Shown here: piece by piece, positions 35,912 to 48,387 of the stretch
Layout of the letters: every line of letters starts with the position of its first letter
Numbering within the stretch: position 1 is the first letter of the stretch
Assembly: GCA_035654555.1 (NCBI GenBank)
Contig: DASRWO010000288.1
Span: forward strand, 1-52,340
Origin: Candidatus Deferrimicrobiaceae bacterium
Lineage (GTDB): Bacteria; Acidobacteriota; Terriglobia; Terriglobales; Acidobacteriaceae
DNA length: 52,340 bases
Direction of reading: 5' to 3'
Translations under genes and position numbers: made by a program
Notes under the pieces: model-generated
The model's database searches: none
Told to the model about the DNA's origin: nothing
What the model saw: the letters and a program-made list of their open reading frames with translations, nothing else

Positions 35912-37072
35912 CTATCCGCGCTTCTCCATTGTTACGTAGTGATTGGGATAGTCCGGCCCCAGATATTCCGCCCGCGGACGAATCAGGCGATTATCGTCCA
36001 GTTGCTCGATTACGTGCGCCGTCCAGCCACTGATGCGCGAAACTGCAAACACGGGTGTAAACAAATCCTCATCGATGCCCAGCGTGTGGTAAGTGGACGC
36101 CGAATAAAAATCAACATTCGCGTTCAGCTTCTTTTCCGACTTGACGAATCGTTCGATTTTTTCCGACATGTCATACCACTGCGGCTGTCCGCTGGAACGG
36201 CCTAAATCACGCGACATGGCGCGAAGATGCGTGGCCCGGGGATCTTCTGTGTGATACACGCGATGACCAAAGCCGGGAATTTTTTTCTTTTGTGCCAGCA
36301 TGCTGCGCACGTAATCAACCGGGTCAGCCTTTTCTCGATCGATCGCGCTCAGAATACGAAAAACCGCTTCGTTGGCCCCTCCGTGCAGGGGTCCCTTCAG
36401 CGCACCGATGGCGGAAGTAATCGCCGAATGCATGTCAGACAAAGTAGCCGCGGTCACCCGCGCTGCGAAAGTGGAAGCGTTAAGCTCATGGTCGGCATGC
36501 AAGATGAGCGCAATATCCAGAGCGCGTTCCGCGGTTGCGGAAGGCTTGGTTCCGTTCAGTTGCAGCAGAAAATTAGCGGCATGCGAGATCAAGCGGTCCG
36601 CTTCAACCACCGGCTTACCTTTGCGAATCCGGTCATAGGCAGCCACGATCATTGCGATCTGCGAAGTCAACCGGATCGCTTTCCGAACGTTGGCATCGTG
36701 ATCGTTCTTCTTATCGTCCGTATCGTAAAATGCCAGCGCCGAAACCGCCGTGCGCAAAACGTCCATGGGCAGTGCGCTTCGTGGAACATCACGCAGAAAC
36801 TGGATGATCGCCGAATCAAGATGACGCTCTTGTGCCAGACGCTCCCGCAGTTCGCTCAGCTCCCCACGCTTTGGTAACCGGCCGAACCACAGCAGATAGC
36901 ACGTCTCTTCAAAGTTGGAGTGCTTAGCTAATTCATGAATGTCGATACCGCGATACGCAAGGACGCCGCGATTGCCGTCGATATAGCAAATGCTGGAATT
37001 GGTGGCAACAATGCCTTCCATTCCTTTTGTGGCGGGAGTGCTGGTAGCGGGAGTGCTGGTCACGCTGGACAT
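35912..37072 (-). CDS. gltA: citrate synthase (short, about 380-aa type)
   Basis: GPLHGGANE, GFGHRVY and the C-terminal R-containing motifs are present. Confidence 0.92.
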   Translation of the reverse strand: MSSVTSTPATSTPATKGMEGIVATNSSICYIDGNRGVLAYRGIDIHELAKHSNFEETCYLLWFGRLPKRGELSELRERLAQERHLDSAIIQFLRDVPRSALPMDVLRTAVSALAFYDTDDKKNDHDANVRKAIRLTSQIAMIVAAYDRIRKGKPVVEADRLISHAANFLLQLNGTKPSATAERALDIALILHADHELNASTFAARVTAATLSDMHSAITSAIGALKGPLHGGANEAVFRILSAIDREKADPVDYVRSMLAQKKKIPGFGHRVYHTEDPRATHLRAMSRDLGRSSGQPQWYDMSEKIERFVKSEKKLNANVDFYSASTYHTLGIDEDLFTPVFAVSRISGWTAHVIEQLDDNRLIRPRAEYLGPDYPNHYVTMEKRG

Positions 37073-37231
37073 AGATTCTCGCTCAGTGACATCAATAACG
37101 TTGCCGAGCCACGCCAGGGGACGGGGAAGCGCAACTTTCTTTTATACGCCTAGAGGCGTCTGCCTTCCAAGTGGAGGCAGCACTTCTGAAAGGTCTGCGA
37201 ATGGTCTGACCATATGACGTTTGCCACCTCG

Positions 37232-38074
37232 CTAGGCAGGCCAGATGCTGAGCGCCGTCTTGCTCAGGATCTGCTCGTGCAACTCGACCCTTAGCGGAAG
37301 CGCGCGGAATTCGTCCAAGTTTTTCTTGACGTCAGGCACGCCCGGCCCTGGCCAGTCCGTGCCGAATAAAGTCTTGTGAGCAATCTCTTCGACGCGGGGA
37401 AAATACTTCAGCAAAGTCTTGGGCGGTATGCCGCTGATGTCGAGATAGACATTAGGATGCCGACGCACGAGAAAGAATGCAGTCTGCATCCATAAAGGCC
37501 GCCCGCCATGGGCCAGCAGGATTTTCAGTTTCGGGAAATCGACGGCCACATCATCCACGTAGATGGGATCGCCATATTTGTTGCGCGCCCCTGGGAAAAT
37601 AGAGGTCCCCGTATGAAACATCACCGGGACACCATTGGCCTCAGCGGCCCGATAAATAATCTCGAGCTCCTTTACGCCGTTCAAATAATCATTCGGAAAC
37701 AGAAGCTGGTGCGGAGGATGAATCTTGATCATGCGAATTCCCAGCCGCAGGATCTGCTCCATATCAGCAAGAACATTCGTGGTGTGCCTCGGATGAAGGC
37801 TGCCGCACGAGAGCAGCCGTTTGGGATTTTCTTTGACGTAGTCCGCAATAAACTGATTTACGCCGTTCGTAAAGCCGATCACTTCAGGAGCCACATAATT
37901 GATCAACACGGCGCGGTCAATACCGCAGGCGTCCAGATAGCTGAGAAACTTCTTTGGGGAATGACAGAACTCGACAATCTGCTCGAAGTTCGGACGCTTC
38001 TTTTTCATCAGCTCCAGTGCGTGGGGCTTGAACATCTCCATCGGCTGGATGTGGATGTGGCAATCGGTGATCAT
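37232..38074 (-). CDS. amidohydrolase_2 family metal-dependent hydrolase/decarboxylase
   Basis: N-terminal DCHIHI (HxH), and later HGG and FGTDWP. I place the start at ATG 38074. Confidence 0.8.
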   Translation of the reverse strand: MITDCHIHIQPMEMFKPHALELMKKKRPNFEQIVEFCHSPKKFLSYLDACGIDRAVLINYVAPEVIGFTNGVNQFIADYVKENPKRLLSCGSLHPRHTTNVLADMEQILRLGIRMIKIHPPHQLLFPNDYLNGVKELEIIYRAAEANGVPVMFHTGTSIFPGARNKYGDPIYVDDVAVDFPKLKILLAHGGRPLWMQTAFFLVRRHPNVYLDISGIPPKTLLKYFPRVEEIAHKTLFGTDWPGPGVPDVKKNLDEFRALPLRVELHEQILSKTALSIWPA

Positions 38075-38096
38075 TCGTTCAGGCTCACCTGTTTGT

Positions 38097-39080
38097 TCAA
38101 TTGCTGGCCGCAGCCAGCACCGCACGCTTTGTGAATACCCGGATCATTTCTCGCCGGTACTCCGGGGTTAGCGCTGAAGTTGTTAGAGGCTTGGCGGTGC
38201 GCGCCGCTACTTCGCCAACAGCATCGGCCAAAGCTTCATCCACAGCTTTGCCGATTAACATTTCGCTCGCCCGCTGTACCAGCAGAGGCGCAGGATTCAC
38301 CGCCGTGATCGCCAGCCGCGCATCCGCAACTTGCCCATTCGATCGCTTCATCACGACTGCAACCCCGGCCAAAGGATAATCGATCGATCCCCGCACCCGC
38401 AGTTTGCGATAAACTCCGCGATAATCGGCCGAGTCAGCTGGCAGGAAAACGCGTGTGACTAATTCTGAGGACAACAGCCTGCGGTAGTTTTCTCCGTCTC
38501 CGGTGTAGAACTCTTGCAACGGAAGCCGCCGCGGGCCGTCTATCCCGACAATCTCAATTTCCGCGTTGAGGCAGAGCAACGCGGGCGGCGTGTCGCCGCA
38601 GAATGCCGCCCAGCACTTTGTACCACCCGGAGCGACGTGGCAGAGATCGCCGTCCTTCTTGATGCAAAACCCGCATCCCTTTCGCCAGGTGAGCGACTGG
38701 TTGTACCAAAGGCAGCGGGTATCGAGACAAATGTTTCCACCGACCGTTCCCATATTGCGCAGCACCGGCGAAGCCACCGTCGCCACAGCTTCGGTGAGCA
38801 CCGGAAAATGCTGGCGTAAATAGGTCGATTTCTCAATCGCGCTGAGCGTAGTTAGCGCGCCAATTTCCACTCCACCATCGGCTTGTGGTCGGACTCCACG
38901 CAACTCAGCATTGCCGCGCAGATCGAGTACATACTCCGGCTCAAACAATTTCTGCCGCATCGACGGAATTAAATCAGTTCCCCCCGCAAGCACGCGAACA
39001 TTGCCCGAATATCTTGCGAGATTCGTAACTGCCTCATCGACTGAGCGCGGCCGAAGCAATCGGAATTGCGGAAGGCTCAA
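38097..39080 (-). CDS. FAD-binding subunit of xanthine dehydrogenase family enzyme, with extra 4-Cys loop (HcrB-like)
   Basis: TTG start overlaps the upstream stop (TTGA). Reads LAGGTDLIP, GTVGGNI, then the insert CLDTRCLWYNQSLTWRKGCGFCIKKDGDLCHVAPGGTKCWAAFCGD. Confidence 0.85.
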   Translation of the reverse strand: MSLPQFRLLRPRSVDEAVTNLARYSGNVRVLAGGTDLIPSMRQKLFEPEYVLDLRGNAELRGVRPQADGGVEIGALTTLSAIEKSTYLRQHFPVLTEAVATVASPVLRNMGTVGGNICLDTRCLWYNQSLTWRKGCGFCIKKDGDLCHVAPGGTKCWAAFCGDTPPALLCLNAEIEIVGIDGPRRLPLQEFYTGDGENYRRLLSSELVTRVFLPADSADYRGVYRKLRVRGSIDYPLAGVAVVMKRSNGQVADARLAITAVNPAPLLVQRASEMLIGKAVDEALADAVGEVAARTAKPLTTSALTPEYRREMIRVFTKRAVLAAASN

Positions 39081-41662
39081 TCTGCACCTCCGGCCACAGC
39101 CGGCGCTTCGCGGCGCGCCGGATCCAGCGCATGCCGCTCCGGCCCTTTGCCCTTAAAGCAAAGCGCTCCGCCATGCTCGCGAAAGCGCGCGGGCGCAGTT
39201 GGATCCACACCTTCCGTCAGATTCAATGCTTTATCGCGTCGCTGAGCCCGGAGCGCGGCCAACACGCGCTCCGGCGTAAATGGAGATTCATGCAGGCGCA
39301 CACCAACCGCGTCGAAAATCGCGTTTGAAATTGCCGGGATGGTCGCCGCCAGCGATCCTTCGCTGCATTCCTTGGCGCCAAAGGGACCTTCGGGATCGAT
39401 ACTCTCCACAATAATAGGCTCGACTTCGGGGGACTCCACTGACGATGGACTGCGGTATTCGAGCATGCCGGCATTCATCAGCATCCCGTCTTTCCACACC
39501 ATTTCTTCCGTCAGCGCTTGCCCCATGCCCATCCACACCGAACCGATAATCTGCCCTTCCACCGAAACCGGATTCAGTGCGCGTCCGCAATCGTGTGCGG
39601 CCCAAATTTTATGTACCGTGACTTCGCCCGTGTCCTTATCCACGCTGACTTCGGCGATCTGCGCCGAATACGAATAGGCCGGCGACGGCCCCACTCCGCC
39701 ACCTTTGTGTTTGCCGCCGCGCGCTTCCGGCGGAGGCGCATAGGAACCAGTCCCGGTCAGAGCACCGTGAAAGTCTATCGCCGCCACAACTGCTTCCTCG
39801 AATGTCATCCATTCCTTCGCGCCTTCTTCTTTGCGCTTCTGCTGTAACGAGCCTCGCAGAATCTGCCCCTCGACGCGGCCGCTCACCGACGCGCCTGTTT
39901 GCGTGACTTCCGCTTCTTCCGATTGATCTTTCTTCGCGCTCGGCGGAGCACTTCCCTTCTTGAATACAAGATCGTCACGAAATACCAGATCATCCGCCGC
40001 ACAATTCATTTTCTTCGCGGCTGCCGCGGCAATTCTCTTCTTCACATCTTCCGCGGCACGCAGAGTCGCATTCCCCGCCATGAAGGTGACCCGGCTGGAA
40101 TACGATCCAATGTCGATGGGAGTGAGATCGGTGTCGGCAGCAATCACTCGTACCCGCGGCAGCGAGCAGCCAAGAATTTCAGCGGCCACCTGCGCCGTCA
40201 TCGTATCCGATCCTTGACCGATCTCCGACGCCCCCGTGTAGACCACGACCCCGCCATCCCGGTCGATCTTGATATTCACCGTCGAATGCGGCATGTCGGA
40301 GCGGATAATCGAATTCGCCGCTCCACTTACATAATGGCTGCACGCAATGCCCAGGCCGCGTCCTCTGGGTAGTTTTCCTCTGCGTTGTTTCCAGCTCGAG
40401 CGCTCGACGATTTTCTCGATGCATTCCGGCAGTCCATAACTTTGCACGCGCAGGCCATTCACGGTGATACACGGAGGCTTGAGGAGATTCCGCCGGCGAA
40501 TCTCGGCTGGATCCATTCCAATCGCCGCCGCGAGTTCGTCCAGCTGCGATTCGAAAGCAAAGCGCACGTTCACCGTGCCATGGCCTCGCATGGCGCCGCA
40601 CGCGGGCTTGTTAGTGAGAACGCGATAACCATCATATTGAATGTGCGGAATATCGTAGAGCGCGCCGAGCAGCGCTCCGGAGTAAAGAATTGTGACCACG
40701 CCGTAGGAACAATAAGCGCCGCCATCCTGCACTACGCGCGCCTTCACCGCGGTAATTCGGCCGTCATTCTTTACCCCAGTTTTCAAATCGATAATCGTCC
40801 GCGGCCGTCCTCGATGCGCCCAGAAAACTTCTTCGCGCGTGTAAGTAATCTTCACAGGAGCCTGCGCCTTGCGCGCCGCCACCGCGGCGATAATCTCCAG
40901 CGGAATCACTTCACTCTTACCGCCGAACCCACCGCCCACCAAAGGCTTGATCACTCGAATCTGCGCCATCGGCATTTCCAGCACCAGCGAGAGCTTATGT
41001 TGCAGGTAATACGGGACTTGCGTAGAAGACCACACCGTCAGCCTTCCGAGCTTTCCTGTGTGTGGATCCAATTCAAACGAAGCCAGCGTGGAATGCGGCT
41101 CCATGGCAGCATGCGTCACTTCATTGGCAATGAATCGTGCTTCCGCCACACGATCAGCCTCGGCAAAACCTTTATCCGGATCGCCAAAAACATGGTGATA
41201 ATCTTTTTCCACATTGCCCGGCTTGTTGTCGTGAATCAGATCGGTCTGCGCCTTCATCGACTCTTCAGGATCGAAGTAAGCAGGCAACACCTCGTATTGA
41301 ACATCGACAAGTTCTAGCGCTTTTTCGGCAACTGCCTCAGAAATCGCAACCACACACGCAACGTTATCGCCAACGTAGCGAACCTTATCGAGCGCGAGCG
41401 CATGCTCATCGTGACCGACGGGAAGAATTCCGTAAGGATTCGGAGCGTCTTTACCAATAACGACGGCCACGACTCCGTCTAGCATTTCGGCGCGCGTGGT
41501 ATCGATATGTTTAATGCGCGCGTGCGGATATGGTGAATGCAGAATCTTGCCAACCAGCATGCCGGGGACGCTGAGATCGTCGGTGTATTTGCCGCCGCCG
41601 GTAGTCTTCTCCGCCGCATCCACCATCGCAGTGGGCTTGCCGATAACGCTGAAGTCGCTCAT
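39077..41662 (-). CDS. molybdopterin-binding large subunit of xanthine dehydrogenase family enzyme (HcrA-like)
   Basis: Colinear with aldehyde oxidase/xanthine dehydrogenase a/b-hammerhead and Mo-binding domains (GGGFGGK, EIGQG, PFGAKE). I place the start at ATG 41662. Confidence 0.88.
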   Translation of the reverse strand: MSDFSVIGKPTAMVDAAEKTTGGGKYTDDLSVPGMLVGKILHSPYPHARIKHIDTTRAEMLDGVVAVVIGKDAPNPYGILPVGHDEHALALDKVRYVGDNVACVVAISEAVAEKALELVDVQYEVLPAYFDPEESMKAQTDLIHDNKPGNVEKDYHHVFGDPDKGFAEADRVAEARFIANEVTHAAMEPHSTLASFELDPHTGKLGRLTVWSSTQVPYYLQHKLSLVLEMPMAQIRVIKPLVGGGFGGKSEVIPLEIIAAVAARKAQAPVKITYTREEVFWAHRGRPRTIIDLKTGVKNDGRITAVKARVVQDGGAYCSYGVVTILYSGALLGALYDIPHIQYDGYRVLTNKPACGAMRGHGTVNVRFAFESQLDELAAAIGMDPAEIRRRNLLKPPCITVNGLRVQSYGLPECIEKIVERSSWKQRRGKLPRGRGLGIACSHYVSGAANSIIRSDMPHSTVNIKIDRDGGVVVYTGASEIGQGSDTMTAQVAAEILGCSLPRVRVIAADTDLTPIDIGSYSSRVTFMAGNATLRAAEDVKKRIAAAAAKKMNCAADDLVFRDDLVFKKGSAPPSAKKDQSEEAEVTQTGASVSGRVEGQILRGSLQQKRKEEGAKEWMTFEEAVVAAIDFHGALTGTGSYAPPPEARGGKHKGGGVGPSPAYSYSAQIAEVSVDKDTGEVTVHKIWAAHDCGRALNPVSVEGQIIGSVWMGMGQALTEEMVWKDGMLMNAGMLEYRSPSSVESPEVEPIIVESIDPEGPFGAKECSEGSLAATIPAISNAIFDAVGVRLHESPFTPERVLAALRAQRRDKALNLTEGVDPTAPARFREHGGALCFKGKGPERHALDPARREAPAVAGGAD

Positions 41663-41711
41663 TGTGGTCTTCTCATTCCGAGTGAAAAGATGAATCGGCC
41701 TCTTGCCGGCA

Positions 41712-42200
41712 TCACTTCGCAGCCGTCCCCTGCTGTTCCGCCGCAATGGCAGAACGGATGGCGGCATACATCTGGCTGTAACCGGTACATCGGCACAGAT
41801 TGCTGCTCAAGGCAGCGCGAACATCGTCTTCCGATGGATCAGGATTTTCCGCGAGAAGCGATTTCACCGTCATGATGAAACCGGGAGTGCAAAACCCACA
41901 CTGCGCGCCACCCCAATCGCCATAGGCTTTCTGAATCGCGGCCAGACTTCCATGCTGACTCACTCCCTCAACGGTGGTAATCTCCTGGCCTTCGCAACTC
42001 GCCGCCAGCAGCGTGCAAGACATCATCGCAACCCCATCAACCAGAACCGTACAAGCTCCGCATGAAGATTCGTCGCACCCGCGCTTCGACCCGGTGAGGC
42101 CCAGATCCTGACGCAGTACGTCGAGCAACAGCGCGCTGGGCTCGATAGCTAATTCGTGAGTGCGTCCATTCACCTTCAGTTCAACCAGTTCTTTCTTCAT
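41712..42200 (-). CDS. [2Fe-2S]-binding small subunit (HcrC/CoxS-like)
   Basis: GCDESSCGACTV and CGFCTPG...CRCTGY motifs. 162 aa. Confidence 0.9.
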   Translation of the reverse strand: MKKELVELKVNGRTHELAIEPSALLLDVLRQDLGLTGSKRGCDESSCGACTVLVDGVAMMSCTLLAASCEGQEITTVEGVSQHGSLAAIQKAYGDWGGAQCGFCTPGFIMTVKSLLAENPDPSEDDVRAALSSNLCRCTGYSQMYAAIRSAIAAEQQGTAAK

Positions 42201-42235
42201 TCAAAAACCAGCTTCTCGCCTCTAGCTACAGAACC

Positions 42236-42559
42236 TCAATACGTTGGGACTTTCCCGTCCACCTGCCGCGACCAGGCATCGATGCCTCCTCGCATGGATT
42301 GAGCCTTCTCAAACCCCTGTTGCCGCAACCATGCAGTCACATTCATCGAGCGCACGCCGTGATGGCAGACGACCACGATATGTTCTTCCGGATCCAGTTC
42401 CTGATGAGCCCGCGAAGGTACGTCTCCCATCGGCAACAGCTTGGCGCCGTCCATGCGGGCAGTCTCGAACTCCCACGGCTCACGGACATCGATCAGCGTA
42501 ACTCCCTCGCCTCGGTCGAGCTTGATCTTTACTTCTTCGGGAGTGATTTCGTAATCCAT
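42236..42559 (-). CDS. single-domain rhodanese sulfurtransferase
   Basis: LIDVREPWEF...active-site loop CHHGVRS. I place the start at ATG 42559. ATG 42604 would overlap the upstream gene. Confidence 0.8.
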   Translation of the reverse strand: MDYEITPEEVKIKLDRGEGVTLIDVREPWEFETARMDGAKLLPMGDVPSRAHQELDPEEHIVVVCHHGVRSMNVTAWLRQQGFEKAQSMRGGIDAWSRQVDGKVPTY

Positions 42560-42588
42560 ATTCTTCGGAACGTCTCGCCATCCATGAT

Positions 42589-43377
42589 CTATTTTGCTTC
42601 CCATTTCGGCTCGCGCTTCTCGATAAAGGCACGAATGCCCTCCTGCGCGTCTGCAGTCTTCATCAACTCTTCCAGATAAATCTTTTCGGCGCGCGCCAAG
42701 CCTTTGTCGAAGTGCGCGGCATCCCATGCATAGATGGCTTTCTTGGTGATCGCCAGCGAGGTCGAACTCGCGCTGAGCACTTCCCGCACAGTTTCATCGA
42801 CAGAGGCCTGCAGCCGTTCTTCCGCCACAGCATGATTGGCCAATCCGATTTCCGCTGCCTCGGTCCCGGTGATCGTTCTCCCGGTCAGAATCAATTCCGA
42901 AGCACGCTTCTGTCCGACCAGCGCGGCCAACGCCGTGCACGCCACTGGCGGATAACATCCCAGTTTGATCTCGGGAAATCCCCACCGGGCCGAGGTTGTG
43001 GTGTAAACCACATCGCACACCATCGCTAGTTCCGCGCCTCCGCCAAGACAATTCCCATGCACGACCGCTATCGTCACCTTCTTGGTGTTGAGCAGCATAC
43101 GAATCACGGCATGGAACTTAGTCAGCATCCCTTCGACTCGCTCAGGCGTGTGGGCGGCAACATCGACTCCAGCGGAAAACGCCTTGCCTTCGCCGCTAAT
43201 CACAACCACCGAAACATCGGGCCGCACGTCGATATCAGCCAGCGCCTGCGCCAACTCCTCCATCATTGGAATGTCGATGACGTTCAGCGGAGCATTGCGC
43301 AGAACAATCCGGGCCGCCGAGGAACCGACATCAACGGTCAGCCGAGCTAGATTAGATTCCACCAAACCGGTCGCCAT
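42589..43377 (-). CDS. enoyl-CoA hydratase/isomerase (crotonase) family protein
   Basis: VVISGEGKAFSAGVDV and GNCLGGGAELAMVCD oxyanion-hole motifs. 262 aa. Confidence 0.88.
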   Translation of the reverse strand: MATGLVESNLARLTVDVGSSAARIVLRNAPLNVIDIPMMEELAQALADIDVRPDVSVVVISGEGKAFSAGVDVAAHTPERVEGMLTKFHAVIRMLLNTKKVTIAVVHGNCLGGGAELAMVCDVVYTTTSARWGFPEIKLGCYPPVACTALAALVGQKRASELILTGRTITGTEAAEIGLANHAVAEERLQASVDETVREVLSASSTSLAITKKAIYAWDAAHFDKGLARAEKIYLEELMKTADAQEGIRAFIEKREPKWEAK

Positions 43378-43420
43378 ACTTCCCTGCGTCTCTGTAACTC
43401 CCTAGTGAAAGTCTTTTAAG

Positions 43421-44596
43421 TCACAAATTAATGGCCGACTTCCGGACCTCGCCGATGCTTGCCAGCGGATCGCGCGCTCCCGCCTTTTCGGCGATCCACT
43501 TCTTTTCGTTAGCGATAATTTCCAGCAGCAGTTTTTTGTCTTGCGTTGACGGCATGATCTCTTTCACGTGCTCTTCGTAAGCCCGGTCACCCAGCGGCTC
43601 ACCGGTTTGCGCGTGAAACTTTTGTCCCTTCCAGCGTCCGATTTCGCGATTAAACTTAATGTCCGGAGCGTACAATTTCGGCTGGCCCGACTTCAAAGAA
43701 CCATTGAATCGCTCGATCAGCCCCGCCACTTCGTTGCGATACAAATTCCGGTTGTAGTCGTTCAAATCGTCCAGGTCCGGAGCTTGCTCATTCTTCGGCT
43801 CATCGTATCGTCCCTTGACTCCCCATACATATGCCCAATGCGCCGACGAGGAATGATCCGTACCGAACAAATCATAGGAACTCGAAATCCATTTATTGAG
43901 ATACTTCTGAATCAGCCAGCCCGGAATGATGCCCGCTTCCACAATGCGACGCAAGCCGTCATTGCCAGTGCCCATATGGAAAGCCTCTTCGCGCAACATG
44001 TAAGACATCGATCGACCGAGCGGCGCAAACGCGGAATATTTCAGCATCTGCAGCTGGAATTTCCCGTCGCGATCCACGAAGTCGGTGTAGGTAAAAAAAT
44101 CCATCCAGTTGTCCACATCCACATTGAAAGCGCCAAGCAGCCGTTTGTTGTCAAAAGCTCGGCGTTCCAGCATTTTCTGCGCCTCAACCTTGCCCGAATA
44201 ACCGAAATGATCCACCAGCAGCGCGCACATCTGCCAGCCGTGGCGCATCTCTTCGATCATGACTCGCGTGATGGCGCGGCGGTCCCAATCCGTGGGCGCA
44301 TTCTCCAGGAGATTGCGCTGCTGCTCTACGCTCGCGAACTCGGTATCGCCTTGATACACGATCATGTTCATCAACGCATCGCGCATCTGCTGCGTGGGAA
44401 TCTGCCGCAGGTTTTCCCACTTGCGCCGCCCTTTGTACGAACCGAATTCAATCTCCTCGGTATCGATCGCGCCATAGAGAGTATCGAACTGAAACGCTTC
44501 AATGTCCTTGGTGTTGACGCCAATGTCTTTGCGCCAATCGTTGAACATGCCGATCCAGTCGCTGAACGTGCCGATTTTTGCTACTTTTCCTGGCAT
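43421..44596 (-). CDS. BoxB/PaaA-family di-iron acyl-CoA oxygenase (short BoxB-like)
   Basis: Two ExxH motifs (IEEMRHGWQM and LREEAFHMGTG). The blocks YQGDTEFASVEQQRNL, DRDGKFQLQML and IQKYLNKW match my recollection of benzoyl-CoA epoxidase BoxB. 391 aa. Confidence 0.72.
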   Translation of the reverse strand: MPGKVAKIGTFSDWIGMFNDWRKDIGVNTKDIEAFQFDTLYGAIDTEEIEFGSYKGRRKWENLRQIPTQQMRDALMNMIVYQGDTEFASVEQQRNLLENAPTDWDRRAITRVMIEEMRHGWQMCALLVDHFGYSGKVEAQKMLERRAFDNKRLLGAFNVDVDNWMDFFTYTDFVDRDGKFQLQMLKYSAFAPLGRSMSYMLREEAFHMGTGNDGLRRIVEAGIIPGWLIQKYLNKWISSSYDLFGTDHSSSAHWAYVWGVKGRYDEPKNEQAPDLDDLNDYNRNLYRNEVAGLIERFNGSLKSGQPKLYAPDIKFNREIGRWKGQKFHAQTGEPLGDRAYEEHVKEIMPSTQDKKLLLEIIANEKKWIAEKAGARDPLASIGEVRKSAINL

Positions 44597-44629
44597 AACT
44601 CCCTCGAAATTGCTGGTTCACTCAGTCCG

Positions 44630-45451
44630 CTATTTTGCTTTGAAAGCTGCCGGGCGCTTCTCGACATAAGCCGCCAAGCCTTCTTTTGCATCGTCACTTT
44701 GAAACAGAATCTGCTGGTTCTCGCGCTCCACCGCCAACGCTGATTCCATAGGAATTTCCCATCCCGTCTGCACCGCTCGCTTGATGCGTCCCACAGCCTT
44801 GGCAGCTTTGTTCGGCGGGCAGAATTGCTTCGCGTACTCCATCATGTTTTCCATGAAACCATCACGCTCGTAAATATCGTTGATAATTCCGAGCTCTTGC
44901 GCTTCTTCAAACGAGAAAGTGTTTCCCGTCACCATCAGTTCAATCGCCTTGCTCTTCCCTACCAGCCGCGACAGCCGCTGTGTGCCGCCAGTGCCGGGAA
45001 GCACGCCCAGGTTCACCTCAGGCAAACCGATCTTGCCCGCGTCTTTGCGTGCGATGCGAATGTCTGCCGCCATCGCAATTTCCAAGCCGCCACCCACGCA
45101 GTGGCCGTTGATGGCCGCGATCACCAGCTTAGGAGTGTGCTCCAGGCGCAGCAGCATTTCATTAGCATGCAGGCAAAAGTAATACTTGAAGGTCGGATCG
45201 ACGCTCGACAGCATCTTGATATTTGCACCCGCGGAGAAAAACTTGTCACCGGCACCAGTCAACAAAATGACGTAGACGTCGTTCTCCATGCGCGCGCGCA
45301 GGATTGCTTCATCGAGTTGACGGTTCATCTCGTAGGTGTAGGTGTTGGCTGGCGGATCGCACATCTCAATCACCGCTACGCCGCCGTCCGTGCGGTAGTT
45401 GACAAGCTGTCTGGTCGTTTCGCCGGTCGTCGGCTGCATCGTGGTCGCCAT
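44630..45451 (-). CDS. enoyl-CoA hydratase/isomerase (crotonase) family protein
   Basis: ILLTGAGDKFFSAGANI and GHCVGGGLEIAMAADIRIA. 273 aa. Confidence 0.88.
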   Translation of the reverse strand: MATTMQPTTGETTRQLVNYRTDGGVAVIEMCDPPANTYTYEMNRQLDEAILRARMENDVYVILLTGAGDKFFSAGANIKMLSSVDPTFKYYFCLHANEMLLRLEHTPKLVIAAINGHCVGGGLEIAMAADIRIARKDAGKIGLPEVNLGVLPGTGGTQRLSRLVGKSKAIELMVTGNTFSFEEAQELGIINDIYERDGFMENMMEYAKQFCPPNKAAKAVGRIKRAVQTGWEIPMESALAVERENQQILFQSDDAKEGLAAYVEKRPAAFKAK

Positions 45452-45489
45452 ATTTATAACTCCTTTTATCGAATTGTCTCTTTGTCATT

Positions 45490-45521
45490 CCGAGCAAAGC
45501 GAGGAATCTCGGCTTTGCCGG
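45490..45521. repeat. intergenic hairpin inside a GTCATTCCGAGC...GAGGAATC-type element
   Basis: CCGAGCAAAGCGAG-gaat-CTCGGCTTTGCCGG forms a stem with two bulges. It lies between the tetR stop and the first crotonase start. The flanking TGTCATTCCGAGCAAAGCGAGGAATC resembles a short repeat I recall from soil-bacterial genomes. Confidence 0.45.
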
Positions 45522-45539
45522 AACCAAAACTAATACAGC

Positions 45540-46202
45540 TCACCGTCCGACTTTGCGCGCCTTACTACCATTCATCGCACCGCGCAAAAAAATGTCGCTC
45601 ATTTCTCGCGCTATGTGTTCAGCATCGGCATCCACGCGCGGATTATGCCAGGTGTATATCCAGTTCATCATGCCAAACAAACTCAAAACTGCAATGCGGG
45701 TGGAAAATTGCAACCCACGGTCCCGCTTCAAGTCATCCAGTAATCCTACGCAGATGCGGTAATACTCGCGCTTAATGGCGGCTACTTCCGAAGCAAAACC
45801 ATTTTTTAGCGCCTCCGCCTCGTGCGAGAGCACCTTCATTGCCGCCGGGTTCGCTAGAAAATAATCCAGGTGATTGAGAATGAAGATTCGTATCTGCTCT
45901 TCCGGATCACCTACTCCTTCTAACCGCCCCTTCAGCCGCTGCACGATGGTCGTGAAGGTGTGTTTCTGAATTAGAAAAAGTAAACGTTCCTTTGATTCGA
46001 AGTAGTAATAAAGCCCCGCCAGCGACATGCCGCTGGCGCGGGAAAGATCACGCATCGAAGCGCCCGCGTATCCTTTTTCGCAAAAGACGTTGGTGGCGTG
46101 GATGAGGATCTCGGATAGCCGCCGGTCGAAGCGCGTGGCTGGCGCGATCACTGTGCGACGTCGGCCTGAGGAAACTCGGGTTGCGGTGGATGGACTGGCC
46201 AT
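45540..46202 (-). CDS. TetR/AcrR family transcriptional regulator
   Basis: N-terminal HTH reads ILIHATNVFCEKGYAGASMRDLSRASGMSLAGLYYYFESKERLL. Confidence 0.88.
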   Translation of the reverse strand: MASPSTATRVSSGRRRTVIAPATRFDRRLSEILIHATNVFCEKGYAGASMRDLSRASGMSLAGLYYYFESKERLLFLIQKHTFTTIVQRLKGRLEGVGDPEEQIRIFILNHLDYFLANPAAMKVLSHEAEALKNGFASEVAAIKREYYRICVGLLDDLKRDRGLQFSTRIAVLSLFGMMNWIYTWHNPRVDADAEHIAREMSDIFLRGAMNGSKARKVGR

Positions 46203-46226
46203 AAAGCGAGAGCCGGAAGTGGCCTA

Positions 46227-46244
46227 TTCGAACGTTCGTTCGAA
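46227..46244. promoter_or_regulatory. perfect inverted repeat, candidate TetR operator
   Basis: TTCGAACG-TT-CGTTCGAA has 8-bp arms and lies 25-42 nt upstream of the tetR ATG. Confidence 0.45.
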
Positions 46245-46299
46245 ACTAGTATACGGCAATTGAATTGCAATCACAACTACCGGTCCTGTCGGTAGTGGA

Positions 46300-46455
46300 C
46301 TACTTTGAATCGGGCGCCTTGGGGAACAAGAAATGTGTTAGAAGACAGAACACCGCTATGGATAAAACCGCGGCCCACCAAGGATGAAAAACAACGGGGA
46401 AAAGGATGAAGACGACGATGAACACGCCCCATTCCCACGTAGGCGTCTTTGTCAT
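46300..46455 (-). CDS. 51-aa two-helix hydrophobic ORF (hypothetical)
   Basis: The ORF reads MTKTPTWEWGVFIVVFILFPVVFHPWWAAVLSIAVFCLLTHFLFPKAPDSK. The SD (AAAGAG) is weak. It is below the ORF-track cutoff. Confidence 0.3.
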   Translation of the reverse strand: MTKTPTWEWGVFIVVFILFPVVFHPWWAAVLSIAVFCLLTHFLFPKAPDSK

Positions 46456-46595
46456 TTATGCCGCTCTTTCTGCCCCTCGCGCTTCGTATGACGTAGCCCG
46501 CTACCGGTCCTGTTTGATGTTTTAAAGCCAATGGGCGGAAAGCTTAGGCCCCCTGGTTCTCTCGCCGATCGGCCATTTCACTTCCAATCTTCTAG

Positions 46596-47684
46596 TTAGT
46601 TTCTTACATCCGCCAGCAGCCGCTCCACCTCGGCTTTTTGATTGCCGGTAAGCGGCAGCAATGGCAGGCGCGCTGGGCCGCCAAAATAGCCGTTCATATC
46701 CATGCCGTATTTCACGCCGGGAATTCCCAACTCGCTCACCACACGTTGCGAAGCCTGCACGATACGCCGTTGCTTCAACGTGGCCAACCCGGTGTCGTTC
46801 TCTTTCCACGCCGCATAGATCTCGTAGCACGCCGTAGGCGCCACGCAAGCGAACGCGAGAATCGCGCCGGCGGCTCCTACATCCAGCGAAGCCTGCAATT
46901 TGTCGGCAGCCCCTACCATCACCTGGAAGCCAACTTCCTTTTGCCGCGTTTTCATCTTGCCAACCACAGTGACCGCGGCCGAAGAGGGTTTGGCAACGGA
47001 CGCCGAACCAGCCAACGCGCCAACCTGCACCAGTTCTCCTCCCTCTGCATTCGAAGCGCCAGCGGCTGCTGCCAGCATGCGCGGTGTCACCGCTTCAAAC
47101 GTTTCCGTTACGGTAGTGGTGCGCCGAATTTGCCGCGTGCCTTCCACCATCGTACGGACCTTTTCCACGTCCCCACTCGATTCCTTGATTCCGATCAGGT
47201 TCGGATGCCCCGCGAGTTCGATCACAAGCTCGGCGGGAATGTTATAGCCGGTCGCCTGCGGAAAGTTGTAAATAATGACAGGCAACGGCGAGCGATCGGC
47301 TACCGTTCGGTAAAATGCCAAAATATTCTCCGGCTGCATTTGCTTTTTGTAGTAATGCGGAGTGCGCACCATGGCGACGTCGTATCCGAGTTCGGCTGCA
47401 TATTCGGTAAGCCGCAGAGTCTCGACCGCCGACTCGACCCCTGTGCCCGCGATGAGCACCTTATTCGGAGCAGCCGCCTCGCGCGCAATCTTTAGCACAC
47501 CGCGTCTCTCTTCGTCAGAGAGCATGATCGCTTCGCCGGTGGAACCGAGCGCGACGATTCCCGCACAGGGTGTGCGCGAATAGCGCTCAACATTGCTTTC
47601 GAGCTTCTTGTAAAACACCTTCCCGTCAGGATAGAAGGGTGTCGTAACGGGAGGGAAAATTCCGTGTAGGAGCATCACGTTCAC
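46596..47684 (-). CDS. dihydrodipicolinate synthase (DapA) family class I aldolase with an internal insertion
   Basis: GSTGE, IIYNFP and the Schiff-base Lys in IGIKESSG are present. An Ala/Ser/Thr-rich insert of about 65 aa lies between the Lys strand and the next core strand. 362 aa, against roughly 290-300 for typical members as I recall them. Confidence 0.85.
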   Translation of the reverse strand: MNVMLLHGIFPPVTTPFYPDGKVFYKKLESNVERYSRTPCAGIVALGSTGEAIMLSDEERRGVLKIAREAAAPNKVLIAGTGVESAVETLRLTEYAAELGYDVAMVRTPHYYKKQMQPENILAFYRTVADRSPLPVIIYNFPQATGYNIPAELVIELAGHPNLIGIKESSGDVEKVRTMVEGTRQIRRTTTVTETFEAVTPRMLAAAAGASNAEGGELVQVGALAGSASVAKPSSAAVTVVGKMKTRQKEVGFQVMVGAADKLQASLDVGAAGAILAFACVAPTACYEIYAAWKENDTGLATLKQRRIVQASQRVVSELGIPGVKYGMDMNGYFGGPARLPLLPLTGNQKAEVERLLADVRN

Positions 47685-47699: not shown

Positions 47700-48107
47700 T
47701 CATCTCTTCGGCGGACAGAGCAGCGGGATGGCTTCGCGTTTATTGCGCCGATAGACGCGGAAATCCTCTTCGTCGACCGTGATGACGATGTGCCGCGGGT
47801 ACAACTCGCTCATTCGGATAAGGCAGAGATCGGCCAAGTCCGGTTTGCGGTCCTGGTATCGCGTAGCAAGGCCGTAAAGTTGCTCCTGATGACTCGCGCA
47901 ATCGAGCGCCACGCGAACAAGATTGTCGCGCAGCATTCCAAGCACTTCCTTGCTGGATTGTAGGTGAAACGCGGTTTCCGCCAATACCGCCTCACAAGTC
48001 AAGACCGGCCAATTGATTTGCTCGCCGACTTCTGCGGCCCACTCATGATATTGGTCGTTGCTCCGCGCCAGGGCCACAAGCAAGCCAGTATCGGCAATGG
48101 CTTTCAT
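47700..48107 (-). CDS. vapC: PIN-domain toxin (VapC-like)
   Basis: Reads MKAIADTGLLVAL..., with acidic residues spaced as in PIN domains. 135 aa. 4-nt overlap with the upstream small gene. Confidence 0.8.
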   Translation of the reverse strand: MKAIADTGLLVALARSNDQYHEWAAEVGEQINWPVLTCEAVLAETAFHLQSSKEVLGMLRDNLVRVALDCASHQEQLYGLATRYQDRKPDLADLCLIRMSELYPRHIVITVDEEDFRVYRRNKREAIPLLCPPKR

Positions 48108-48331
48108 TCTCGCGAAAATCCCTTACGGCTGGAAACGTCTCGCGGACCGCCCTTGATAATTCCTACATGCTTCCGCCACGCCTGATTGCCCTTAGCGGGG
48201 CGGTCGCTTGAGAGCCCGTTCTCCACACACTGTCGCACGACCCGCCCGACCGGCAACCCGGTGCGGTGGGCCTTGGCGCGAAGACGCTCCAACAGCTCTT
48301 CTGGAAGGCGAATTGTGAGTGTGTTACTCAT
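48104..48331 (-). CDS. vapB: ribbon-helix-helix antitoxin (VapB/CopG-like)
   Basis: MSNTLTIRLPEELLERLRAKAHRTGLPVGRVVRQCVE. The alternative in-frame GTG at 48349 has a better SD (AGGATGG). Confidence 0.7.
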   Translation of the reverse strand: MSNTLTIRLPEELLERLRAKAHRTGLPVGRVVRQCVENGLSSDRPAKGNQAWRKHVGIIKGGPRDVSSRKGFSRE

Positions 48332-48387
48332 GTTACAGAATTGTAACACAATCCATCCTTTTATCTTAAAACCTGAAGCAGGGATAA

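Follow-up and report, generated by a model that had tools for sequence, protein, structure and literature searches.

A predicted acidobacterial operon joins a 4-hydroxybenzoyl-CoA reductase homologue to a BoxB-like di-iron oxygenase

Organisation of the locus

Nine minus-strand ORFs lie together in the window, the whole 52,340-nucleotide stretch of DNA analysed here, which belongs to a Terriglobales bacterium resembling Candidatus Sulfotelmatobacter, and our ORF check placed them at the coordinates of the original prediction, bearing out its run of co-directional genes with short or overlapping junctions. The intergenic distances along the run are 88, 33, 43, 29, 35, 49, -4 and 22 nt, the largest gap being 88 nt and the negative value an overlap of the hcrA and hcrB reading frames. 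Profiles from Pfam and NCBIfam back all nine of the family calls made previously. Upstream of tetR lies a putative promoter-like site, TTGTGA-17 nt-TATACT (46248..46276, minus strand), which is a consensus match only and the sole sigma-70-like match within 36900-46700. With one promoter-like site, one operator, no gap above 88 nt and the hcrA/hcrB overlap, the nine genes are predicted to form a single transcription unit.

By comparison with related loci, a PaaR-type TetR regulator with its operator, a crotonase (ECH273), the BoxB-like oxygenase, a second crotonase (ECH262), a rhodanese and an Amidohydro_2 protein make up one module (module A), and the three HcrCAB-like genes form module B. The window had been thought to lack genes for an aryl-CoA ligase, BoxA, BoxC and BoxD, and none of the four was found among its larger ORFs, which were the ones profiled.

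The TetR regulator and its operator

The regulator encoded by tetR (45540..46202, minus strand; Pfam TetR_N and TetR_C_24) probably belongs to an acyl-CoA-sensing subgroup of TetR repressors (PaaR/FadR/AibR-like). Its NCBIfam matches to FadR, the fatty-acid regulator of Bacillus type (NF053878), are weak, its top PDB matches are 3dcf, 3vpr and 5k7f, of which we take the last two to be acyl-CoA-responsive regulators, and it shares 48% identity with the TetR of a Gemmatimonadaceae cluster (locus L088).

Immediately downstream of the promoter-like site, a palindrome of the form TTCGAACG-NN-CGTTCGAA reads TTCGAACG-TT-CGTTCGAA (46227..46244), a perfect 8+8 inverted repeat with no other match in the window. 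The palindrome noticed earlier upstream of tetR is real, and it has a counterpart in the same place in 77 of 78 related loci at a threshold of three mismatches or fewer, nearly all of them with one mismatch at most. Exact matches in loci L001-L095 number 71, of which 70 lie directly upstream of tetR; the motif also precedes tetR in both Gemmatimonadaceae-type clusters checked (L088 and L090) and the BoxB-like gene in all 30 Binatia-type loci. It agrees at every specified position with the PaaR consensus of Thermus thermophilus, CNAACGNNCGTTNG, as quoted in PMC6651687, and the effector of that regulator is phenylacetyl-CoA (PMC6651687). By comparison, the window TetR is predicted to repress its own promoter via CGAACG-NN-CGTTCG. 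Its likeness to PaaR (TTHA0973) lies in the operator and in gene position, not in a comparison with the PaaR sequence; here tetR opens the operon and is predicted to be autoregulated.

An operator typical of a phenylacetyl-CoA-responsive regulator counts against a benzoyl-CoA substrate, and together with the PDB matches 3vpr and 5k7f it favours an alternative that we consider unlikely, though worth weighing, in which module A degrades another aryl- or acyl-CoA, for example phenylacetyl-CoA by a single-subunit epoxidase replacing PaaABCDE. The Hcr complex would then share the promoter and have its product used elsewhere, or would act on another para-hydroxylated aroyl-CoA.

The HcrCAB-like reductase

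Module B encodes a three-subunit homologue of 4-hydroxybenzoyl-CoA reductase (4-HBCR) in which the Cys ligands of all Fe-S clusters are retained. The HcrC-like subunit (41712..42200, minus strand; Fer2 and Fer2_2) carries the cysteines for two [2Fe-2S] clusters (42, 47, 50 and 62, and 101, 104, 136 and 138) and scores 185.6 bits against TIGR03193, below the cutoff of 257.8. The HcrA-like molybdopterin subunit (39077..41662, minus strand) scores 1032 bits against TIGR03194, exceeding the equivalog cutoff of 994.55, and matches 1rm6_A at 3e-244 (816 bits), with all other PDB Mo-hydroxylases at 287 bits or less, which agrees with its earlier description as HcrA-like and not CoxL-like. The HcrB-like FAD subunit (38097..39080, minus strand; FAD_binding_5 and CO_deh_flav_C) matches 1rm6_B at 3e-65 and TIGR03195 at 326.7 bits, below the cutoff of 404.55. 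The additional Cys loop that had been proposed for this subunit is present, C123, C139, C147 and C156 aligning with C122, C138, C146 and C155 of Thauera aromatica HcrB; to our knowledge this [4Fe-4S] loop is confined to 4-HBCR, where it is associated with inverted electron flow.

The complex thus shares with HcrCAB of T. aromatica (PDB 1RM6) and with HbaBCD the gamma-alpha-beta subunit order, the cysteines for the two [2Fe-2S] clusters and the beta-subunit loop, and matching Mo and FAD Pfam families. It differs in its alpha subunit, which reaches just 51% identity with Thauera HcrA (60-70% with other BoxB-linked HcrAs) and bears two features not seen outside the clade, a Terriglobales-specific insertion (about 45 aa) and a C-terminal tail (about 54 aa); in its beta and gamma subunits, which score under their cutoffs; in the absence of a ferredoxin gene nearby; and in its predicted co-transcription with an oxygenase of O2-dependent type, not with anaerobic benzoyl-CoA reductase genes, in a lineage presumed to be mostly aerobic or facultative. 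The sub-cutoff subunits and the distance from the characterised enzyme count against a 4-HBCR assignment. The Thauera 4-HBCR is oxygen-sensitive, and the predicted O2 need of the BoxB-like protein is a point against pairing the two.

Hydroxylases make up most of the xanthine-oxidase family, and the complex could accordingly be oxidative, hydroxylating a heteroaromatic or activated acyl-CoA as furoyl-CoA dehydrogenase does before the BoxB-like enzyme oxygenates the product. The modest identity of HcrA to the characterised reductase, the greater similarity of BoxB-linked HcrAs to each other than of any of them to Thauera HcrA, and the sub-cutoff beta and gamma scores are all in its favour. We nonetheless regard this as improbable, given an alpha subunit above the 4-HBCR cutoff and the four-Cys loop, whose specificity for 4-HBCR also speaks against a heteroaromatic acid. 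HmfABC/HmfE likewise places a Mo/FAD/Fe-S enzyme of CoA thioesters, as the present complex appears to be, beside a crotonase-family gene; the two are set apart by the loop and the HcrA profile score, not by an alignment with HmfA. The mechanism of 4-HBCR depends on conjugation between the thioester carbonyl and the ring, so its product would be an aroyl-CoA and not an arylacetyl-CoA, which argues against phenylacetyl-CoA as the substrate of the module.

The BoxB-like oxygenase and its partner enzymes

The BoxB-like di-iron oxygenase (43421..44596, minus strand; Pfam PaaA_PaaC) is a short form of 391 aa, about 80 aa shorter than BoxB and about 28% identical to it overall in a structural alignment. 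It scores 221 bits against the BoxB equivalog TIGR03225 (cutoff 499), a shortfall that counts against benzoyl-CoA and is compatible with phenylacetyl-CoA. Against this, it lies far nearer to BoxB than to PaaA, both in sequence (8e-49 to PDB 3per, 9e-6 to PaaA) and in its AF2 model (pLDDT 91), which superposes with TM 0.86 on BoxB with bound benzoyl-CoA and with 0.51 on PaaA. All six di-iron ligands of BoxB are kept (E86, E116, H119, D175, E204 and H207), in keeping with the earlier assignment, and together with second-shell Q82, T85, S89 and F157 they are invariant among 37 diverse members. Seven BoxB residues orient benzoyl-CoA, including Q116, T119, S123 and F193 (PMC5489048). These named four are kept family-wide, and F203 corresponds to F167 of the window protein, the same residue being the family majority; the pocket departs from BoxB at two sites, where F206 is replaced by Y and T210 by V. 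Retention of most of the benzoyl-orienting residues is a further point against phenylacetyl-CoA.

The invariant partner of the oxygenase is ECH273 (273 aa; 44630..45451, minus strand; ECH_1, 7e-56), which none of the 65 genomes lacks; its identity there, 87-98%, equals the conservation of carB, and it is 74% identical to its Gemmatimonadaceae orthologue in L088. Both catalytic Glu are present (E124 and E145) and the top PDB match is 2ppy (6e-67); it looks like an ordinary two-Glu hydratase with no special similarity to BoxC, which counts against a BoxC role. The second crotonase, ECH262 (262 aa; 42589..43377, minus strand; ECH_1, 4e-49), also has its Glu pair (E116 and E136), occurs in 97% of loci at only 58-85% identity, and has cyclohexa-1,5-dienecarbonyl-CoA hydratase as its best specific NCBIfam match (157 bits, cutoff 292).

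The single-domain rhodanese (42236..42559, minus strand; Pfam Rhodanese, 1.5e-16) has active-site C65 in CHHGVR and resembles the MoeZ C-terminus; an alternative start further upstream is possible. The Amidohydro_2 protein (37232..38074, minus strand; 9e-34; H6, H8, H154 and D240) has the uncharacterised BB4693 as its sole PDB relative and is 48% identical to the protein encoded by the final gene of the L088 Gemmatimonadaceae cluster. Its start may be a GTG at 38125, giving 297 aa, as called in relatives. Each of these two genes occurs in 75% of loci, Hcr-less loci included, and in other clades the rhodanese gene adjoins that of the BoxB-like protein without Hcr; both go with the BoxB-like module and not with Hcr.

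Distribution and modularity

Instead of one fixed unit, the nine genes represent a pared-down version of a modular locus. The recurrence of gene order that had been anticipated was found, the exact nine-gene order being the commonest single architecture (15 of 65 species-level Terriglobales genomes), but HcrCAB is facultative: it lies within module A in 47-48 of the 65 (about 74%), always between the rhodanese and amidohydrolase genes, and is missing from about 26%. We count at least 13 gains or losses, with one visible deletion scar. Judged from sequence, module A represents a cross-phylum regulon of Acidobacteriota, Gemmatimonadota, Binatia and Zixibacteria.

Sister genomes add to the same operon an aldehyde dehydrogenase and a CoA-transferase of two subunits, and also a thiolase and a 3-hydroxyacyl-CoA dehydrogenase. 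The CoA-activating and BoxD-like functions that had seemed to be missing are present in these sister operons, as the CoA-transferase pair and the aldehyde dehydrogenase. The 10-gene cluster of Gemmatimonadaceae/Gemmatimonadales loci, which lacks Hcr, contains genes for three crotonases, aldehyde dehydrogenase, thiolase and 3-hydroxyacyl-CoA dehydrogenase, and in mirroring the lower Paa pathway it favours the phenylacetyl-CoA alternative. Taken together, the enzymes of the sister and out-phylum clusters (these and the CoA-transferase) would fit the lower-pathway needs of a Box- or a Paa-type route equally well. Genes for PaaB, PaaC, PaaD, PaaE and PaaK are absent here, and the resemblance to PaaA is remote.

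With the BoxABCD pathway of Aromatoleum/Azoarcus evansii the locus would share a substrate bound as CoA thioester and a predicted di-iron oxygenase. A crotonase-family gene adjoins that of the oxygenase, as does, in sister genomes, an aldehyde dehydrogenase gene, here of generic betaine-aldehyde or phenylacetaldehyde-dehydrogenase type. The locus differs in having a TetR regulator in place of the XRE-type BoxR, in its additional Amidohydro_2 and rhodanese genes, in its carriers, which are not Proteobacteria, and in the absence of BoxA and a BoxC-sized dihydrolase from all loci examined.

The window and 80 related loci yielded neither BoxA nor any other reductase, which favours a reading in which the modules share electrons and not a substrate, the Fe-S/FAD chain of HcrCB feeding the di-iron centre in place of BoxA. 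The order BoxB-like-NuoE-NuoF is conserved in the Binatia clade, sufficiently long contigs showing both genes; this pair is a candidate reductase for the oxygenase there, and its flavin/[4Fe-4S]/[2Fe-2S] cofactor set resembles that of HcrB plus HcrC. We nevertheless consider such coupling very improbable, since the Hcr-less close relatives keep the BoxB-like protein and ECH273 at 83-98% identity and the Gemmatimonadaceae/Gemmatimonadales clusters also do without Hcr; another reductase must therefore exist.

The patchiness of Hcr could also mean that the juxtaposition is meaningless, Hcr being a mobile accessory cassette in a permissive intergenic spot and the BoxB-like protein and ECH273 housekeeping enzymes unrelated to aromatics. 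That both are as conserved as carB, and that the BoxB-like gene occurs as an orphan in Zixibacteria and other lineages, or in some lineages alone or with tetR only, fits this reading; it is unusual for a peripheral catabolic gene and counts against benzoyl-CoA. We give this little probability, because Hcr keeps a constant position inside the operon, set off by short gaps and served by no separate promoter, because the flanking stretches examined contain no mobile-element genes, and because Hcr is linked to the BoxB-like gene in three further deeply diverged clades (four in total) whose BoxB-like proteins are only 52-58% identical. This recurrence favours functional coupling, and it also argues against phenylacetyl-CoA as the module's substrate.

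Proposed route and significance

The explanation we favour, tentatively and at somewhat below even probability, is an acyl-CoA-inducible operon built from the two modules, in which HcrCAB converts 4-hydroxybenzoyl-CoA to benzoyl-CoA and a Box-type epoxidation and ring opening independent of BoxA and BoxC follow. The original prediction had suggested such a hybrid route; the four-clade linkage supports it, but its nine genes did not prove to be a unit. A ligase or transferase encoded elsewhere in the genome would supply 4-hydroxybenzoyl-CoA, which HcrCAB would reductively dehydroxylate with a low-potential donor. The BoxB-like protein would then epoxidise the ring with O2 and two electrons from a reductase not encoded at the locus (NuoE/NuoF-like in Binatia), ECH273 would open it hydrolytically in place of BoxC, and aldehyde dehydrogenase, ECH262 and beta-oxidation enzymes would carry the product to central metabolism, with Amidohydro_2 and the rhodanese contributing further steps. 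That an aldehyde dehydrogenase, a CoA-activating enzyme and a reductase are all missing from the window counts against this route. Hcr would be an optional funnel for para-hydroxylated substrates, which may be why it is so frequently lost.

We found no published account of an HcrCAB-type reductase and an O2-dependent BoxB-like oxygenase in one operon. If the proposed route is correct, a peat-soil acidobacterium joins an "anaerobic-type" dehydroxylating reductase to O2-dependent ring attack in one repressor-controlled operon, and the Hcr/BoxB-like pairing, recurrent in several bacterial lineages, may be a common soil route for plant phenolics.

Gene content of the operon

Nine open reading frames lie on the minus strand between positions 37232 and 46244, separated in order by intervals of 88, 33, 43, 29, 35, 49, -4, and 22 nt, and profile searches of the nine proteins against Pfam and NCBIfam bore out every family named in the original prediction. 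These are a regulator with TetR_N and TetR_C_24 domains, a crotonase of 273 aa (ECH273), a BoxB-like protein of 391 aa in the PaaA_PaaC family with BoxB (TIGR03225) as its best specific match, a second crotonase of 262 aa (ECH262), a rhodanese of 107 aa, an HcrC-like subunit with two [2Fe-2S] clusters, an HcrA-like molybdopterin subunit, an HcrB-like FAD subunit, and a final Amidohydro_2 protein. The remaining larger window ORFs that were profiled encoded housekeeping or envelope functions (urocanase, capsule genes, carB, citrate synthase, cysteine desulfurase, mnmA), and none was a ligase, BoxA, BoxC, or BoxD, in agreement with the absences first noted from the sequence. The nearest genomes were MAGs of Candidatus Sulfotelmatobacter and Terriglobales. 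The window BoxB-like protein had no exact match in the contig index, and a full-text literature search returned no description of the cluster.

Both crotonases look like ordinary two-Glu hydratases, with both catalytic Glu residues present in ECH273, and BoxC was absent among their listed matches (the best 25 NCBIfam families, and PDB matches at cuts of 1e-30 and 1e-25). For the Amidohydro_2 protein, neither the sequence alone nor a profile of five members hit any NCBIfam family, and the one PDB match was BB4693, itself uncharacterised. A possible role for Amidohydro_2 and the rhodanese is a decarboxylase or hydrolase step in place of the formate release of BoxC.

Upstream of tetR, a DHDPS-family protein of 362 aa (46596-47684, minus strand) keeps its synteny with the BoxB-like locus in almost every Terriglobales genome examined, and its Pfam match falls into two stretches, which points to an internal insertion. 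Between this gene and carB is a minus-strand pair with a 4-nt overlap, a PIN-domain (VapC-like) toxin of 135 aa (47700-48107) and a CopG/RHH antitoxin of 95 aa (48104-48391); relatives have a SnoaL-like gene or nothing at this place, and in one relative the SnoaL-like gene is accompanied by a GIY-YIG gene upstream of carB. Elsewhere in the window, a plus-strand histidine kinase (5211-7235) has an N-terminal ETR1_N domain (plant ethylene-receptor-like, 4e-38), with PAS, HisKA, and HATPase domains after it; as a possible ethylene-binding-type sensor in an acidobacterium, it may be worth separate study.

The BoxB-like oxygenase

The di-iron ligands expected of a BoxB-like protein were all found in alignment, with E86, E116, H119, D175, E204, and H207 corresponding to E120, E150, H153, D211, E240, and H243 of BoxB, and the six were invariant in 37 of 37 diverse family members. 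Benzoyl-CoA is oriented in BoxB by Q116, T119, S123, F193, F203/F206, and T210 (PMC5489048). The first four correspond to Q82, T85, S89, and F157, also invariant across the 37 members, while F203 is retained as F167 in the window protein, Y170 takes the place of F206, and V174 that of T210, at a position that varies in the family. An AF2 model (pLDDT 91.2, pTM 0.89) predicts the BoxB fold over the whole chain, and Foldseek aligned it to BoxB (3q1g/3pm5) with a TMq of 0.86 and an rmsd of 2.5 A.

Nevertheless, the score of 221.3 bits against TIGR03225 is below the equivalog cutoff of 499.1, and the protein is ~80 residues shorter than BoxB (about 473 aa). It belongs to a distinct short form of about 350-391 aa, with identities between members down to 35-52%, which is represented in soil phyla by no fewer than 590 loci from species-level genomes as well as by clusters of thousands of metagenome sequences. 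BoxA and BoxC were found neither among the window ORFs profiled nor in the Pfam gene tables of 15 related loci, nor in the remaining related loci, for which the search used our own query set only. By its score and its neighbors the protein thus stands outside canonical BoxB. It is also distinct from the oxygenase of PaaABCDE, since it matched PaaA at only 9e-6, with a TM of 0.51, and genes for the partners PaaB, PaaC, PaaD, and PaaE are absent.

The HcrCAB complex

By domain content (Pfam/NCBIfam) and gene order, the three Hcr subunits follow the gamma-alpha-beta arrangement (2x[2Fe-2S], Mo, FAD) of 4-hydroxybenzoyl-CoA reductase (4-HBCR). The alpha subunit passed the equivalog score of TIGR03194 (1032.2 bits, cutoff 994.55) and was 51% identical to HcrA of Thauera aromatica, its best match in the PDB (1RM6_A, E = 3e-244). 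As the score to 1RM6_A was 816 bits, compared with 287 bits for the next best Mo hydroxylase and 248-267 bits for CO dehydrogenase, the large subunit is HcrA-like, as predicted, and does not group with CoxL. Neither the beta nor the gamma subunit reached its equivalog score (TIGR03195, 326.7 vs 404.55, and TIGR03193, 185.6 vs 257.8), although these families were still their best or nearly best matches. The FAD subunit matched 1RM6_B at 3e-65, and the extra Cys loop reported originally was confirmed, with C123, C139, C147, and C156 aligned to C122, C138, C146, and C155 of Thauera, so that all four Cys residues of the [4Fe-4S] loop are kept. Both four-Cys motifs are present in the small subunit. 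The complex is therefore assigned to 4-HBCR only in part, by the alpha subunit, the Cys loop, and the gene order. The proposal that Hcr works oxidatively on a heteroaryl-CoA is disfavoured, as the [4Fe-4S] loop speaks against it. A large subunit of the HmfA type, as in furoyl-CoA dehydrogenase (HmfABC), is likewise disfavoured, though only indirectly, by the TIGR03194 score and the Cys loop.

HcrA carries an insertion of ~45 aa (core SGRVEGQILRGSLQQKRK, residues about 575-618) and a C-terminal tail of ~54 aa (about 808-861) with the conserved core NLTEGVDPTAP.RFREHGG. Both are confined to the Terriglobales clade and absent from Thauera HcrA and from the BoxB-linked HcrAs of other clades; they might be related to partner docking or oxygen tolerance. 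The homologue search with HcrA returned only relatives of 92-100% identity, and outgroup HcrAs were taken from metagenome loci and the 1RM6 alignment. At one related locus (L086), HcrA and HcrB read as a single 1256-aa ORF joined via the C-terminal tail, the result of a natural fusion or else of a frameshift in the assembly.

Regulator and operator

The similarity of the window TetR protein is at the family level only (TetR_C_24; acyl-CoA-sensing TetRs), and its nearest solved structures include 3vpr and 5k7f, which we take to be acyl-CoA-sensing regulators. Reading of the sequence upstream of tetR revealed a perfect palindrome, TTCGAACG-NN-CGTTCGAA, at 46227-46244, just past a promoter-like TTGTGA-17-TATACT. 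In the minus-strand reading the site is CGAACGAACGTTCG, and it agrees at every specified position, with an identical core, with the palindrome CNAACGNNCGTTNG, given in PMC6651687, after Sakamoto et al. 2011, as the consensus for PaaR of Thermus thermophilus, a TetR repressor with phenylacetyl-CoA as its effector. An operator-like match was located upstream of tetR in 77 of 78 loci with three or fewer mismatches (one or none in nearly all). The loci, about 1.8 Mb in total, contain 71 exact matches to [CT]GAACGNNCGTTC[GA], of which 70 lie upstream of tetR and the remaining one directly upstream of the BoxB-like gene in a Binatia locus; the operator was present in all 30 testable contigs of the Binatia type, 31-45 nt upstream of the BoxB-like start. 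The window locus thus resembles the PaaR-type TetR regulon in having this palindrome at the tetR promoter, and the operator is conserved across loci and phyla.

Such an operator favors a rival reading in which the genes other than Hcr act on another substrate, for example phenylacetyl-CoA, and the set of lower-pathway genes points the same way. The oxygenase, however, is nearer to BoxB than to PaaA, and the chemistry of Hcr also speaks against a substrate of this type. An operator so well defined offers a direct way to find the other members of the regulon, the missing reductase and CoA-activating enzyme among them.

Variation among related loci

Gene content was scored by tblastn in 80 species-level genome loci, all from Terriglobales, and percentages are based on the 65 with enough flank. 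The locus was always next to carB-DHDPS, with citrate synthase usually on the other side where the flank reached. ECH273 and the BoxB-like gene were present in 100% of the 65 loci, with 83-98% identity across loci, which is the conservation level of carB. They were followed by ECH262 (97%), tetR (92%), rhodanese and Amidohydro_2 (75% each), HcrCAB (72-74%), an aldehyde dehydrogenase between ECH273 and the BoxB-like gene (35%), and CoA-transferase subunits flanking ECH262 (23-25%). According to this survey, the 'missing' genes for CoA activation and aldehyde oxidation are operon members in sister genomes. The CoA-transferase subunits, split round the ECH262 gene in the order B-ECH-A in the sister locus L004 (11291-13765) and its equivalents, are distant from PcaIJ/ScoAB (about 50 bits).

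The nine-gene order did recur, as the commonest single architecture (15/65), but the cluster is not a fixed unit, with HcrCAB in fewer than three-quarters of the loci. Loci lacking Hcr mostly have a clean rhodanese-amidohydrolase junction. In one of them (L044), remnants of hcrC (the N-terminal 23 aa) and hcrB persist between the rhodanese and the amidohydrolase (6254-6937), a scar left by the internal deletion through which HcrCAB was lost. The presence of Hcr required at least 13 changes on an NJ tree of ech273 and boxB-like DNA, and Hcr is an optional insert. We consider it quite probable that the locus in general is made up of two modules, HcrCAB and the remainder. A role for the rhodanese solely as an Hcr accessory in sulfuration of the Mo cofactor was rejected because the gene persists in loci without Hcr.

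BoxB-like clusters were also found in other lineages. Loci from Gemmatimonadaceae/Gemmatimonadales and related contigs have the order TetR-ECH-Aldh-thiolase-ECH-BoxB-like-GDPD-HADH-ECH-Amidohydro_2 with no Hcr; in one of these (L088), the proteins were identical to those of the window at 74% (ECH, to ECH273), 53% (BoxB-like), 48% (amidohydrolase), and 48% (TetR), and the Aldh was 59% identical to that of L004. The glycerophosphodiester-phosphodiesterase-family (GDPD) gene is constant in this 10-gene cluster (L088 11232-11945, L090 11125-11868, and L093 11143-11802). In a Candidatus Binatia clade, the BoxB-like gene is followed by NuoE-like ([2Fe-2S]) and NuoF-like (FMN, [4Fe-4S]) genes, NuoE-like in 29 of 31 contigs of this type and both genes on contigs long enough, the two exceptions ending directly after the BoxB-like gene; the pair is plausibly a dedicated reductase of the Binatia oxygenase. 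TetR is the sole companion of BoxB-like in one further lineage, and BoxB-like stands alone in Zixibacteria and two others. In two unrelated lineages with an orphan BoxB-like gene, the region 2-3 kb downstream of it encodes a fused E1 alpha/beta 2-oxoacid dehydrogenase of ~700 aa (L087 14069-16168 and L092 12875-15013), which may be a clue to the origin of the acyl-CoA substrate there.

Linkage of Hcr and the BoxB-like module

Where present in Terriglobales, Hcr occupies one fixed operon position, rhodanese-Hcr-amidohydrolase, and lacks a separate promoter; in operons without the rhodanese, its neighbor on that side is ECH262 or a CoA-transferase gene. Metagenome loci added three more BoxB-like clades with linked hcr genes (L157/L159, L166, and L127/L130), whose BoxB-like proteins are only 52-58% identical to that of the window. 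In these clades hcrC and hcrA follow the same module, as does hcrB where the contig reaches (e.g. L159), and the BoxB-linked HcrAs are 60-70% identical among themselves and 45-53% identical to the Thauera enzyme. The recurrence of the linkage over such divergence suggests function rather than accident, and a meaningless adjacency of the two modules is further opposed by the fixed position of Hcr.

The mechanism of 4-HBCR requires a ring-conjugated thioester, and the sole characterised reaction of an Hcr-type enzyme known to us yields benzoyl-CoA, so that the simplest link would be the supply of benzoyl-CoA by Hcr to the BoxB-like oxygenase. Transfer of electrons from Hcr to the di-iron centre is a weakened alternative given the genomes without Hcr, and for the same reason a role for Hcr as the obligatory reductase of BoxB-like is largely rejected.

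Proposed pathway and implications

We infer the substrates, the direction of the reactions, and the order of the steps as follows. TetR would repress the operon until an aryl-CoA accumulates. 4-Hydroxybenzoyl-CoA, made by an enzyme encoded elsewhere in the source genome (in sister genomes the operon CoA-transferase is a candidate), would be dehydroxylated by HcrCAB, and the benzoyl-CoA formed would be epoxidised by the BoxB-like protein with O2 and an unlinked reductase. ECH273, with its two catalytic Glu residues, would open the ring, and the aldehyde dehydrogenase, ECH262, and beta-oxidation enzymes would complete the route. The locus would then function like a Box-type route fed by 4-HBCR. 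We propose this full sequence tentatively, with somewhat less than even confidence, and with the caveats that 4-HBCR is likely oxygen-sensitive and that some BoxB-like genes are orphans.

To our knowledge, only two CoA-dependent epoxidase routes, Box and Paa, are established for aerobic ring opening, mainly through work on Proteobacteria. In a far more speculative reading, which we think very improbable, BoxB-like would be the oxygenase of a third such system whose redox partner is swapped between lineages, the NuoE/NuoF-like pair serving in Binatia. In Terriglobales and the three other clades, the [2Fe-2S]/FAD/[4Fe-4S] chain of HcrCAB would feed both Mo, for dehydroxylation of 4-hydroxybenzoyl-CoA, and the di-iron centre, where the resulting benzoyl-CoA would be epoxidised, as a self-contained reductase-oxygenase machine.

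We class the locus as a BoxA/BoxC-independent, PaaR-operator-controlled family of BoxB-like pathways of soil phyla, in which the 4-HBCR module is optional. This family of BoxB homologues lacks BoxA and BoxC and comes with a regulator, an operator, and partner enzymes that are conserved and particular to it, and an "anaerobic-type" 4-hydroxybenzoyl-CoA reductase is attached to it in Terriglobales and in three further clades. JGI labels for these genes read 'benzoyl-CoA 2,3-dioxygenase/epoxidase component B' and '4-hydroxybenzoyl-CoA reductase subunit alpha', so metagenome surveys based on such labels may mislead by counting them as evidence for the canonical aerobic box pathway and for anaerobic aromatic degradation. 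If the preferred route from 4-hydroxybenzoyl-CoA is true, abundant Acidobacteria of peat and soil take off the para-hydroxyl reductively and then open the ring oxidatively, a strategy that would fit microoxic soils with abundant phenolics from lignin and Sphagnum.
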